From Escherichia coli (GTDB taxonomy: Bacteria > Pseudomonadota > Gammaproteobacteria > Enterobacterales > Enterobacteriaceae): a stretch of 2,698 nucleotides of DNA. Under the pieces are notes generated by a model. The model was not told where the DNA came from. It ran no database searches and saw only the letters and a list, made by a program, of their open reading frames with translations. The stretch lies in NCBI RefSeq assembly GCF_003334255.1, contig NZ_QOWU01000131.1. One strand, given 5' to 3'. This document shows positions 1 to 2,177 of this stretch, piece after piece. The stretch's first letter is position 1; every line of letters begins with the position of its first letter. Position numbers and translations under genes: made by a program.

Positions 1-174
1 GCGTATCACGCGCAATACGACCCCAAATAAAGCAACCTGCCTTCCACCCCTCAATTCGGGCGCCCTTCCCTCGTCGCCTGCGCACTGCAATTGCCTCGTT
101 TTTCGTGCACCGTGCAAACCGGCCTCAGCCAGCGCCGTTACTGGGCTGAATGGGGATGAAACACATAAGAAAAA

Positions 175-819
175 TTGTGCAATTTCGTGCGCTTTTGTGC
201 ATTTTTTATCTTGCGATTTTTGGGGGTGGGTGGTGATGATAATCATCTGTCTGAATCAGTGGTGTATTGCCGGGTGAGAACTGTGAAAAATTACTCATAT
301 CCTTATTTAACTTTTGTCACGCTTTCTGTTTTGGGGGGGATTTTTCTTTTTATTTGGTGGCGAAACGATGTTTACAGAATTACCTACCTTTATTCGTTCA
401 CGACAAACTGCCTTGTTTCAGTGTCTGTGGTGCTTTCGGTTTTTGTCTCACTGTGCCTGTTGAAAAAGAACCTGGTTGATCGGTCTAAATTTACCGGGGT
501 TACATCGTATCTTAAGTTTTTTTCGGGTATGTGCCTTCTTACCTGGATGATTCTGTTTACCCTCCTGGTTACGCTGATATATTTTCTTCCGGGTGAAGAT
601 TCATTCTATTCCGCTCCCTATGAGTACAGTCGCGGTAGCTCAAAAAGTTGTTCAGGGGCATTTGTTGATGATCCTGATTTGCAAAAAACAATCTTTATTT
701 GCTACCCATACGGTGACTATCAGGATGGTAATGTGATTTATGTGAAGAAGCGTGTGAATGCGCTGGGTGCGGTGGTCACCTATGCATACGCGACAAGCGG
801 CCGATTTCGGTTTGACTGA
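175..819 (+). CDS. putative small multi-pass membrane protein (hypothetical); start codon uncertain
   Basis: Frame open for 214 codons with stop TGA at 817-819. Translation shows three hydrophobic stretches (YLTFVTLSVLGGIFLFIWW, LVSVSVVLSVFVSLCLL, CLLTWMILFTLLVTLIYFL) followed by a ~75-aa Tyr/Phe-rich hydrophilic C-terminal region. No in-frame ATG until 529-531; candidate starts are TTG 175 (no SD) and GTG 283 (weak SD-like GGGTGAG at 272-278). Composition is T-rich and A-poor: by hand count, G+C is 22/60 in 301-360 and 23/60 in 361-420, versus 32/60 in 1981-2040. That bias suppresses stop codons, so the N-terminal half could be open by chance; a second frame (267-479) is also open here. Confidence 0.4.
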   Translation: MCNFVRFCAFFILRFLGVGGDDNHLSESVVYCRVRTVKNYSYPYLTFVTLSVLGGIFLFIWWRNDVYRITYLYSFTTNCLVSVSVVLSVFVSLCLLKKNLVDRSKFTGVTSYLKFFSGMCLLTWMILFTLLVTLIYFLPGEDSFYSAPYEYSRGSSKSCSGAFVDDPDLQKTIFICYPYGDYQDGNVIYVKKRVNALGAVVTYAYATSGRFRFD

Positions 820-868: not shown

Positions 869-1186
869 TCATCGCCCGGTTCTTGAGCTGATAATGCTTT
901 GCGTCAGCAGCTGCCAGCCCTCTTTCTGTTGCCCGTACTTGTCCTGATACCTGTTTACCTGCAAGTTTCCGTGCACCAGAATCAGATCGCCTTTTCTGTG
1001 TTTTGCCAGTTCTTCGTGCTGCTTCCCGAATGAAATAAGGTAAAGCCACATTGTGGTTGGCTGTTCTGCGCCATGGCAGGGTAGTGATACCGCCAGTTGT
1101 GCCGTTGTGACGTTGGTTCCTTTGGTTGTTCTCCTTGTGTTCGGGTCTGCTGCCAGTCGTCCATCTGTTGCAACCTGTGTTGGCAT
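869..1186 (-). CDS. single-stranded DNA-binding protein-like OB-fold protein, short form without C-terminal acidic tail
   Basis: ATG at 1186-1184 is preceded by GGGAGA (1197-1192); stop TGA at 871-869. The 105-aa translation aligns by eye with the OB-fold core of E. coli SSB recalled from memory: VATDGRLAADPNTRR against VILVGNLGQDPEVRY, and WLYLISFGKQHEELAKHRKGDLILVHGNLQVNRYQDKYGQQK against [43 protein letters not shown]. The protein ends right after the OB domain, with no Gly/Gln/Pro linker and no acidic DDDIPF-type tip. This is fold-level resemblance only and has not been searched. Confidence 0.6.
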   Translation of the reverse strand: MPTQVATDGRLAADPNTRRTTKGTNVTTAQLAVSLPCHGAEQPTTMWLYLISFGKQHEELAKHRKGDLILVHGNLQVNRYQDKYGQQKEGWQLLTQSIISSRTGR

Positions 1187-1218
1187 ATTTGTCTCCCGTG
1201 TTGGTTTTATTGTTGGGG

Positions 1219-1557
1219 TTAGATGACTGGCAGCTCTTCGCCAGCGCCGTAGATAAACAGAATTCTCTTCATGATTTCGCTGCGCTTGCAGGCTTCAATT
1301 ACGGACGGCTCTTGTTGCCATTCTGCCCGTTGCGCCAGCTCCAGTCGTTCCTTTTCCGTTGGCTTCCGGTAATGCGTTATCTTGTCCGTGTACCCGTCCA
1401 CAACCAGCAGCCCTTCGCGTACCATCTTTCCGGCGGCCTGATTAATGATGGTCCTTTTCACGCCCAGTTTTTCAACCAGCTCTGGTGCGCTGAAGCGTGC
1501 GTGCGTTTCCAGGTAGCGTAAAATGATTACCTTTCCGGTCATTCTGGGTGTCTTCAT
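1219..1557 (-). CDS. putative winged-helix / HTH DNA-binding protein (hypothetical regulator)
   Basis: ATG at 1557-1555 is preceded by a perfect AAGGAG (1570-1565) with a 7-nt spacer, and overlaps the upstream stop as ATGA. Stop TAA at 1221-1219. The 112-aa product begins MKTPRMTGKVIILRYLE. The segment SAPELVEKLGVKRTIINQAAGKMVREGLLVV looks like an HTH recognition helix plus wing, as in Lrp/MarR-like regulators. The ORF track extends the frame to an ATG at 1626, but that start lacks an SD and lies inside the upstream gene. Confidence 0.65.
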   Translation of the reverse strand: MKTPRMTGKVIILRYLETHARFSAPELVEKLGVKRTIINQAAGKMVREGLLVVDGYTDKITHYRKPTEKERLELAQRAEWQQEPSVIEACKRSEIMKRILFIYGAGEELPVI

Positions 1558-1724
1558 TTGGCGGCTCCTTCGTTGTTCCGGCGTTCGCGGAGTTCGGTCA
1601 GTGCTGCCAGTAAATTTTCCCACCATGTTTCTTCCACAACCGGATTTCGTCGTGAAAGCAGCTGCTGCGCCGACTCAATCATTTTCGTAAGCTCTTTGTC
1701 GCTGATCCTCCTGATGTCGTTCAT
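1554..1724 (-). CDS. hypothetical small helical protein (56 aa)
   Basis: ATG at 1724-1722 is preceded by a perfect AAGGAG (1736-1731) with a 6-nt spacer. Stop TGA at 1556-1554 overlaps the start of the next gene (ATGA at 1557-1554), implying translational coupling. Product MNDIRRISDKELTKMIESAQQLLSRRNPVVEETWWENLLAALTELRERRNNEGAAK is charged and predicted helical. An alternative longer start at ATG 1763 has only a weak, distant SD. Confidence 0.55.
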   Translation of the reverse strand: MNDIRRISDKELTKMIESAQQLLSRRNPVVEETWWENLLAALTELRERRNNEGAAK

Positions 1725-1772
1725 GGTGTGCTCCTTCGGTTTGCTGTTTCTGGTCATGTTCATGGTCTTTTG

Positions 1773-2177
1773 TTACCTGCGTGATTGCCTGCTGGCGGCC
1801 GAATGCACATAGCGGACAATTGCCGCTTTTCGGTTAACGACGGCCAGCGTTCTTGCCAGTTCTTCGTTGAGTTTTCTGGTCTGTTTTTCGTGGTATGCCT
1901 GCATGATTTTTCCTACGGGAGTCAGTGGTTCAGGCTCTGATATGGCGCGACGAGGGCGCACGGCAACGATGAATGCGCTTCTGTCGGTGTTGGTTCTTGC
2001 AGTCAGGATGTCTGTCATGACGGTATCTGTGCTGCGATCGGGGTTTGCGATCGTGATCTCCAGTTCGTCGCCTGGCTGTGGTCGAACACTGACGCCGCTC
2101 AGCGTCAGTGCCGGAATGCGTCCACTCATGATGGCGCTGAAATCATGGCGCTGGAGTACACAATGGAATCGTGTCAT
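1773..2177 (-). CDS. hypothetical protein (134 aa)
   Basis: ATG at 2177-2175 is preceded by GGAGGTGA (minus strand, about 2192-2185) and overlaps the stop of the upstream ORF (ATGA at 2177-2174). Stop TAA at 1775-1773. Codon usage is consistent with the rest of the operon. I recognise no family. Confidence 0.65.
   Translation of the reverse strand: MTRFHCVLQRHDFSAIMSGRIPALTLSGVSVRPQPGDELEITIANPDRSTDTVMTDILTARTNTDRSAFIVAVRPRRAISEPEPLTPVGKIMQAYHEKQTRKLNEELARTLAVVNRKAAIVRYVHSAASRQSRR

Follow-up and report, generated by a model that had tools for sequence, protein, structure and literature searches.

The window analysed here, a stretch of 2698 nt, is the cos-proximal gpA-gpQ region (old/tin locus) of a P2-like Escherichia coli prophage. 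Its positions 206-870 are a one-gene accessory cassette (moron) in the gpA-gpQ hotspot, and the gene codes for a predicted inner-membrane protein of 178 residues that combines three transmembrane (TM) helices with a small barrel. The gene boundaries, the architecture and the status as hotspot cargo, taken jointly, leave us with very little doubt. As to the function, we favour superinfection exclusion by a single envelope protein that is expressed from the prophage, and we assign a probability of roughly 45% to this reading. Cargo of this kind is already known, both from the hotspot and as morons, as are candidate exclusion proteins, and the protein itself has been catalogued. New are its fold family and the correct gene boundaries; neither these nor the function have been described previously.

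Location in a P2-like prophage

The window matches 22 complete E. coli chromosomes at 97-99% identity. In NZ_CP058571 it is located inside a P2-like prophage, after the capsid and terminase genes and the portal gene (gpQ homologue; 7685-8728 of locus L001). The portal gene is followed by the gene for the 178-aa protein and then, on the opposite strand, by an operon that extends from an SSB-like gene to gpA, which is the gene order of P2. This minus-strand operon codes for an SSB-like and a MarR-like protein, two small ORFs and the replication endonuclease gpA, the 3′ end of which is within the window. Thus, the original prediction of an ORF that is convergent on a replication-type operon proved correct. 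The gene order of NZ_CP058571 is repeated around homologues in P2-like prophages from E. coli and Salmonella.

The gpA-gpQ interval, which carries old and tin in P2, was described by Rousset et al. (2022, PMC9122126) as a hotspot for anti-phage systems; cargo not related to defence, for instance partition systems and cytolethal distending toxin, is found there as well. The start of the old-tin mRNA of P2 lies about 150-170 nt from cosR, and transcription leads away from cos, convergently with gene A. The gene under study shares with old and tin the locus, the orientation (it converges with the A operon and points away from cos) and the status as variable cargo. However, the protein has no relation in sequence or domains to Old, an ATPase-nuclease, or to Tin, and is a single small membrane protein instead.

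That the gene might be variably present beside a conserved replication operon was confirmed by two sister prophages (L013 and L014), which share positions 1-205/207 and 835/871 onward of the window at 92-97% identity (91-97% for 1-205/207 taken alone) but hold other cargo. Between the conserved flanks, L013 (JNEC-KY179) has a DUF4760 gene and L014 (strain Bongo) a TumE/HVO_A0114 toxin-antitoxin pair in place of the gene for the 178-aa protein. Positions 1-205, 3′ of the portal gene, accordingly represent the backbone of the prophage lineage. Within it, a GC-rich core at about 55-85 has the position that cos has in P2, between portal gene gpQ and the cargo. This core is probably cos; the assignment is made by position only because window positions 1-300 gave no significant BLAST match to the P2 cos region. 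No sequenced phage was found to be close to the source prophage at the DNA level.

Gene boundaries and coding status

An ORF at 175-819 had been proposed originally. Such an ORF does exist mechanically on the plus strand (214 aa with a TTG start), but the real gene is shorter and extends from GTG283 to the TGA stop codon that ends at 819 (283-819, plus strand, 178 aa, WP_000801013.1). This assignment is supported by PGAP annotation, by the ATG starts of homologues, by pN/pS values, by shuffled sequences and by an AlphaFold2 (AF2) model. All five diverged homologues that were examined at the DNA level have an ATG at the codon aligned to GTG283 (MK[N/K]xSYPYL), and none of the homologues has the upstream N-terminal extension encoded by 175-282 in common with the window. 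A Shine-Dalgarno-like element, GGTGA (273-277), is located 5 nt upstream of GTG283. Upon shuffling, the frame 283-816 was open in 1 of 20,000 cases and the frame 175-282 in 2806 (14%), so that the 5′ extension corresponds to chance expectation. Compared to the window, loci of the 97%-identity class have 25 substitutions in 63-267 but only 0-4 in the 537-nt CDS; 11 substitutions occur in 202-267 between loci of this class. The stretch 175-282 is a chance-open, non-conserved and non-coding leader.

There is no in-frame ATG before codon 119 of the longer ORF (nt 529), as had been stated and as is evident from both sequence and translation. Nevertheless, the 96-aa version starting at ATG529 is wrong, since the TM-encoding half is under purifying selection and the homologues start at the codon aligned to GTG283. 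Among homologues, pN is 0.11-0.39 versus a pS of 0.60-0.91, with synonymous sites being saturated, and both halves of the protein are constrained. The TM-encoding half shows pN values of 0.32-0.39 versus pS values of 0.71-0.77 when the window is paired with its homologues, and a dN/dS of about 0.1 for the less saturated pair of phage 434 and the P2-like locus L004. In the C-terminal domain, pN is below that of the N-terminal half (0.23-0.26). Indels between homologues are exclusively in-frame.

A T bias independent of codon position had been named as an indication of non-coding DNA. The bias turned out to depend on codon position, T at position 2 reaching 48% in the TM half versus 22% in the C-terminal domain, and it is therefore a coding signature; at position 3, both parts have about 40% T. 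The chance that there is no gene at all, but just an accidental open frame in A-poor DNA, is negligible. Such a frame had been considered for much of the 5′ half. The plus strand is indeed poor in A throughout the window (A 15% in 869-2698), and long antisense ORFs have resulted from this, one of 131 aa at 1126-1521 and one of 155 aa at 1867-2334; for 175-282 the explanation holds. For 283-819, however, it is refuted by the shuffles, by purifying selection in both halves and by the confident AF2 model. In addition, frame, start and the 178-residue architecture are kept down to 20-30% identity in 58 cluster representatives.

Base composition and flanking elements

The G+C content of the ORF is 42%, compared to 51-56% in five neighbouring genes, and its GC3 is 45%, compared to 54-63%. 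The claim of a G+C content below that of the neighbours is thus valid, but the extreme values given for it (37-38% G+C, with T around 50% and A around 10%) fit only two 60-nt blocks (175-234 and 295-354), while the ORF as a whole has 37% T and 20% A. As the complete plus strand is A-poor, T-richness alone is not specific to the ORF. It is an accessory gene that was acquired horizontally and differs from the surrounding phage genes in base composition, as is typical of morons.

Similarity to the sister prophages stops at 205-207, which leaves a cargo-specific non-coding 5′ leader on the plus strand (206-282). Immediately upstream of it, three direct [T/C]GTGC[A/G] repeats start at 176, 186 and 196 of the plus strand (176-201) and are thus phased 10 bp apart; two further copies are found at 104 and 111. 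These repeats are kept upstream of the homologues in L004, L008, L009 and phage 434, and they are also present in sister prophages with other cargo. Within the leader, the -10-like sequence GATAAT (237-242), which aligns to TGATAAAT/TGGTAAAT in homologous loci, is a putative promoter element, and a transcription start is predicted near 245-255; a consensus promoter scan upstream of the gene returned no promoter. The -10-like block is conserved and, like the TGTGCA repeats, accompanies the gene from one phage family to another.

Behind the ORF, between the convergent transcription units, there is a hairpin as originally described. It is located at 834-859, has a GC-rich stem of 10-11 bp and a folding energy of about -20 kcal/mol (z = -2.8). 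The U-rich tract CAGGAUUUCUUUUUU follows the hairpin on the minus strand, which identifies the hairpin as primarily a terminator for the SSB/gpA operon; on the plus strand there is no U-tract 3′ of it. Sister prophage L014 has kept the hairpin, and the match of this prophage to the window starts at 835.

Distribution and mobility

The allele of the window occurs in 22-28 of 5426 complete E. coli genomes. The same slot is filled by homologues with 51-58% amino acid identity in other P2-like prophages of E. coli and Salmonella. These are always transcribed in the portal-to-gpA direction, and some of them reside beside other cargo, e.g. ParM/StbA or YafO. In Table S5B of Rousset et al. (2022, PMC9122126) system #4 is listed as "3 TM", without Pfam domain, for 470 of 18,150 loci, and its sequence is identical to our protein from KNYSYPYL onward. 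The protein is neither in the supplementary file that gives the cloned systems of that study nor among the validated P2 systems named in its text (PMC9122126). A position next to cos, variability among relatives and a catalogue listing are what marks cargo of the gpA-gpQ hotspot, and all three are found for this gene.

Between xis and exo, and on the strand opposite to pL, the lambdoid phages 434, 2B8 and mEp332 encode a homologue with 52% identity. This 434-type allele is present in 915 of the 5426 complete E. coli genomes (about 17%). The copy from phage 434 and that from the P2-like locus L004 show 76% nucleotide identity over 778 bp, a stretch that reaches beyond the CDS by 137 nt on the upstream side and by about 110 nt on the downstream side. 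As the identity spans the CDS together with its flanks, the gene has been moved between phage families along with these flanks. A separate block of 37 nt from the portal-proximal side of cos is also common to 434 and L004, with about 78 nt of the GC-rich cos core missing in 434. Judged from these alignments, the gene appears to move as an autonomous module between phage families, as is expected of a moron.

In the CP-933K-type remnant of O157:H7, the homologue is intact while the adjacent int gene is frameshifted and bet is truncated. Similarly, it is intact in strain LR-51 even though the prophage has been disrupted by an IS element. An intact gene in decaying prophages, together with its prevalence, suggests that it is of benefit to the host.

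Architecture of the protein

Three hydrophobic segments had been predicted, and the 178-aa protein indeed has three hydropathy peaks, at residues 8-26, 42-60 and 84-102 (Kyte-Doolittle, 19-residue windows, >1.8). We assign TM1 to residues 9-26 (307-360, plus strand, as for all following segments), TM2 to residues 43-60 (409-462) and TM3 to residues 83-101 (529-585); the corresponding helices in the AF2 model cover residues 5-29, 38-61 and 73-101. The model was built from an alignment of 29 sequences and has a pLDDT of 93.5 and a pTM of 0.83. Loop 2 (residues 61-82; 463-528) is rich in Lys/Arg, with five such residues, and is predicted to be cytoplasmic. The C-terminal domain (residues 102-178; 586-816) is predicted to be a periplasmic, five-stranded OB-like beta-barrel, based on the model and on the cysteines of the family. 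Its strands comprise residues 105-116, 125-130, 135-140, 151-158 and 162-171, and there is one short strand in loop 1 (34-36). According to our reading of the model, the latter packs against the C-terminal domain and would add a strand to the barrel.

The C-terminal domain is the most conserved part of the protein, with the motif LPG..S.Y.A.Y.Y..G...C.G..V.DP.L...I.IC.P.G...K.SN.LG.VV. It had been described as rich in Tyr, Phe and Cys, which holds for Tyr (11.7%) and Phe (6.5%), but there are only two cysteines. Exactly two, in fixed columns of the alignment, are found in this domain in 28 of the 29 family members (C123 and C140 in our protein). Loop 2 has on average 4.4 Lys and Arg residues in the family (net charge +3.5), compared to a net charge of +1.1 in loop 1, and it exceeds loop 1 in 27 of the 29 members. 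The positive-inside charges, the fixed pair of cysteines and the loop 1 strand thus lead to a protein with its N-terminus inside and its C-terminus outside, with a disulfide-bonded periplasmic barrel. This topology, with a barrel of about 75 residues, is a prediction from established topology rules, and we consider a periplasmic location of the C-terminal domain quite likely.

Family relatives

A HMMER search of 1.84 billion cluster representatives retrieved only 58 relatives. Nearly all full-length members of the family have about 165-190 residues and show the same layout. A profile search, which had been proposed as a check, matched the protein to PHROG 1416 (E = 7.6e-50), with residues 89-178 covering the whole 90-position profile; this profile derives from truncated gene calls starting at Met89. 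Pfam gave no match at E <= 0.001 for the protein or any of the 29 family members, NCBIfam had none for the protein, and the PADLOC defence models had none in 12 family members. When PDB was searched by sequence with both profiles, nothing was obtained below E = 0.1. No functional study was found in the literature for WP_000801013, UMO75376, XSB40999 or phrog_1416, or by topic. A Gifsy defence protein encountered in the literature is an unrelated ATPase, and a profile-search match to the giant repeat protein P0088 was disregarded as it represents summed weak matches to Ig-like repeats.

Searching genome contigs with the alignment of the closer family yielded 9 loci. Distant homologues (27-47% identity) are stand-alone genes on chromosomes or megaplasmids of Pantoea, Serratia, Kosakonia, Enterobacter and Citrobacter, with unrelated housekeeping genes as neighbours and without phage genes nearby. 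The Pantoea homologue is on an LPP-type 500-kb megaplasmid, beside a TetR gene and fetAB, that from Citrobacter is beside rstB and that from Enterobacter beside a GGDEF gene. The Serratia homologue is located downstream of ptsG, another one is beside an scr sucrose-PTS operon, and a further one is beside STAND/TPR genes and an Apyc1-like gene. From the non-phage contexts we conclude that the family is not intrinsically a phage family, and its ancestral role may have been unrelated to phages. The P2-like, lambdoid and chromosomal contexts have no conserved neighbour in common, and the protein therefore most likely functions by itself. We considered a link to PTS EIIC permeases and set it aside as a weak lead; it is seen in 2 of about 15 contexts, was noticed post hoc, and a census of 20 loci gave no further case.

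Comparison with known systems

Entry of DNA is blocked at the envelope by the small proteins gp15 (encoded by a moron of HK97) and Imm and Sp (T4). These differ from the 178-aa protein in size and fold, gp15 and Imm being much smaller and Sp being soluble and helical. The likeness, which is an analogy only, is that they too are encoded by autonomous accessory genes and, as small proteins of the membrane or periplasm, work at the envelope without partners (PMC11436027).

The gene for SieA from P22 (Leavitt et al. 2024, PMC10883804) likewise stands alone in the prophage, and its start codon is uncertain. It codes for about 160-180 residues with three predicted TM helices in the inner membrane and, like the gene for our protein, is an accessory gene among essential phage genes. 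The SieA-like size and the 3-TM prediction are shared by our protein according to hydropathy and the AF2 model. However, homology is rejected, as hhalign of the family profile against P22 SieA resulted in a probability of 0.3%. The SieA motif FxRYPxEAxxFNK is absent from the sequence of the 178-aa protein. In SieA this motif is predicted to be cytoplasmic and there is no periplasmic beta-barrel, and SieA is restricted to P22-like phages, where it is found between genes 16 and 9 (PMC10883804).

TM helices followed by a small beta-barrel likewise occur in the Cap15/S-2TMbeta effectors of CBASS, and one weak Foldseek match is annotated as such. Membership in this group is rejected on Pfam, genomic context and predicted topology. 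S_2TMBeta had no Pfam match at E <= 0.001 in 29 members, a nucleotidyltransferase partner (CD-NTase/SMODS) is not conserved across the contexts examined, and the cytoplasmic ligand-binding beta-barrel of Cap15 is not what is predicted here. An assignment as MliC/PliC-like lysozyme inhibitor is rejected because the fold differs and the second motif is missing; those proteins carry the motifs SxSGAxY and YxxxTKG on an 8-stranded beta-barrel (COG3895), a combination not found in our protein. A small 5-stranded barrel on an N-terminal membrane anchor also occurs in DUF1093 (YxeA from B. subtilis, PDB 3npp) and in other OB-like domains anchored to the membrane, such as YhhM/DUF2500 (PDB 3q6c).

Proposed function

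We propose that in the lysogen a promoter of its own would drive transcription of the gene, leading away from cos and converging with the replication operon, in the same way as for old/tin of P2; expression in the lysogen is an assumption of this model. The protein alone, at the inner membrane and in the periplasm, would then block genome delivery by superinfecting phages. Its target might be the ejection/tape-measure apparatus of the incoming phage, i.e. the trans-envelope conduit, or a host inner-membrane factor needed by the phage. In our assessment of exclusion, we counted on the positive side the hotspot locus, the old/tin-like geometry, the listing in Table S5B, the variability of the cargo, the reality of the gene, its mobility as a unit, its acting alone, its retention in decaying prophages and the architecture; on the negative side we counted the lack of a PADLOC match, of SieA homology and of a consensus promoter, the non-phage distant relatives and the non-defence cargo of the hotspot. 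A more far-reaching version, which we put forward tentatively and hold to be possible, is that the protein is the founding member of a new single-gene exclusion family. In this family, a disulfide-locked periplasmic OB-like barrel on a 3-helix anchor would block phage genome delivery, and a promoter-gene-terminator cassette would be exchanged between P2-like and lambdoid phages, with the 434-type allele, found in about 17% of complete E. coli genomes, extending to O157:H7.

It is conceivable, though we think it rather unlikely, that the protein is a lysogenic-conversion or envelope-fitness factor apart from phage defence, which is carried for the benefit of the host and whose barrel modulates a host transporter, a stress sensor or the uptake of bacteriocins or contact-dependent toxins. 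The residence of distant homologues in housekeeping neighbourhoods devoid of phage genes fits such a role, as do the non-defence cargo of the P2 hotspot and the retention in decayed prophages. Moreover, the C-terminal domain shows stronger conservation than the TM part, in better agreement with a conserved host target than with a phage target that evolves rapidly. On the other hand, neither fold nor sequence points to a specific function, the phage-borne copies reside exactly where the exclusion genes of P2 reside, and the PTS adjacency mentioned above is rare and was an after-the-fact observation.

Lower still is our estimate for an abortive-infection effector that permeabilises the inner membrane upon infection, like RexB, SieB from lambda or the CBASS effector Cap15, and we regard this as improbable. 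TM helices followed by a beta-rich domain would be suitable for that purpose, and according to Rousset et al. (2022, PMC9122126) a TM protein found in a defence system is usually a suicide effector. There is also a weak tier of Foldseek matches (TM-score about 0.6, 13-20% identity), one of which is annotated "SMODS-associating 2TM beta-strand rich effector" (E = 8.4e-7), and the distant homologue beside the STAND/TPR and Apyc1-like genes points in the same direction. A special case of exclusion, which we take to be very improbable, is a membrane-anchored peptidoglycan-hydrolase inhibitor that would block the lysozyme or transglycosylase of phage tails, like Spackle from T4, by way of a loop similar to SxSGAxY of MliC/PliC. 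The most conserved motif, S-C-S-G-A-x-V (residues 122-128), does resemble SxSGAxY (PMC6033465), and the domain is predicted to be periplasmic and membrane-anchored.

The gpA-gpQ hotspot is a proven source of anti-phage systems, and the protein is the fourth most frequent cargo catalogued from it (470 loci) while having no domain annotation. About one in six complete E. coli genomes has a related allele in a lambdoid prophage, and this allele stays intact while the prophage decays. If phage exclusion is its function, this would be a very common barrier that is missed by defence finders (PADLOC), would matter for phage therapy and typing of E. coli, Shigella and Salmonella, and would represent a structurally new mechanism at the level of the envelope. 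Otherwise, it would still be a widespread membrane protein of lysogenic conversion. We consider the gene a cheap and good experimental target rather than a surprise.

Annotation of the gene in public databases

Public annotations of the start codon are inconsistent (90, 178, 181, 210 and 235 aa), and the boundaries are now fixed against them and are accompanied by a confident model and a topology that can be used for the design of experiments. The 178-aa version is that of PGAP in EC2, while 181 aa are given by Rousset et al. and a version of 210 aa has also been annotated. PGAP has 235 aa in G1/2 and S19-651, where the TAA at 166-168 reads TTA. The shortest version, with 90 aa, is represented by PHROG 1416 and by UniProt A0A376W2E6. 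Codons 15-17 contain a G7 homopolymer (326-332, plus strand), which is a G9 run in STEC17-183; this results in a frameshift, and the gene has been left unannotated in that strain.

Relationship between P2-like and lambdoid cassettes

The cargo gene homologue of phage 434, a moron between xis and exo of this lambdoid phage, is embedded in a segment (L002, 4833-5638) that matches the P2-like prophage locus L004 (5749-6636) with 76% DNA identity over 778 bp, flanks included. The similarity is a trace of the exchange of a cassette between lambdoid and P2-like phages. Beyond the putative cos region, a block of 37 nt is still present in phage 434, while the cos core itself lacks ca. 78 nt. Upstream of the 434 moron, an annotated 56-aa 'putative membrane protein' overlaps this relic and may not be a real gene.

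In the window, the GC-rich core GGGCGCCCTTCCCTCGTCGCCTGCGC (55-85) lies within the backbone segment 1-205, with the portal gene on one side and the cargo gene on the other, and is probably the cos site of this prophage lineage. It bears only a loose resemblance to the cos sequence of P2, and a BLAST comparison with the P2 ends gave no significant match. Five copies of the motif [T/C]GTGC[A/G] follow (104-116 and 176-201), the last three being spaced at an exact 10-bp phasing. The motifs are conserved in sister prophages which carry different cargo, as well as 5′ of the homologues in phage 434 and in further P2-like prophages; none is found in P2 itself. They could represent terminase (cosB-like) sites or, alternatively, the operator of the cargo promoter.

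Among 5426 complete E. coli genomes, 915 carry the 434-type homologue. The gene is intact within decayed lambdoid prophages, as in O157:H7 strain 3384 (L025), where int is frameshifted and bet truncated, and in strain LR-51 (L026), where the prophage carries an IS insertion. The 434-type gene was also encountered adjoining lambda exo on a 3.5-kb contig labelled Candidatus Nanosynbacter (L032, attributed to a Saccharibacteria MAG). This exo shows 98% identity to that of phage 434, and the contig is almost certainly an E. coli prophage contamination of the MAG bin.

Start assignment and integrity of the cargo gene

For the same gene, the start assigned by PGAP varies by genome (window 112-283), resulting in 178 aa from the GTG at 283 or in 235 aa. 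The longer call begins at the equivalent of window position 112, in loci where the TAA at 166-168 is replaced by TTA (L016 and L017, 1463-2170). Lengths of 90, 181 or 210 aa are found in other sources, and the source sequences of PHROG 1416 are truncated 90-aa calls. Codons 15-17 on the plus strand contain a G7 homopolymer (326-332). This run is G9 in strain STEC17-183, so that the gene is frameshifted; the run could be an on/off site that is prone to slippage, or the locus may just be a pseudogene or contain a sequencing error.

The convergent gpA operon

Besides two small ORFs, the tail of the gpA operon (869-2177, minus strand) contains genes for a MarR-type winged-helix protein and for a short SSB-like protein of 105 aa. 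Overlaps of 4 nt between neighbouring genes (1554-1557 and 2174-2177) suggest translational coupling. The four genes are kept in sister prophages regardless of cargo; they are tallied as hotspot content in Table S5A of Rousset et al. 2022 (PMC9122126).

Because the minus-strand genes are A-rich, the plus strand has only 15% A in 869-2698, and therefore long spurious antisense ORFs occur there (1126-1521, 131 aa; 1867-2334, 155 aa).

Distant homologues

PtsG and ManYZ are inner-membrane factors for DNA entry by the siphophages HK97 and lambda. Two chromosomal homologues are located directly 3′ of a PTS EIIBC locus, namely ptsG in Serratia marcescens (L030, 5001-5510) and the scr operon in L022 (6001-6543). 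Among 20 loci checked, no further homologue was found beside a PTS locus, and we regard the adjacency as a weak, post hoc lead. The P0048-type distant homologue (L018-L020, L036) adjoins two large DUF4062/TPR STAND-like genes, in what looks like a defence island, and one variant of this neighbourhood also carries an Apyc1-like gene with a metallo-beta-lactamase fold.
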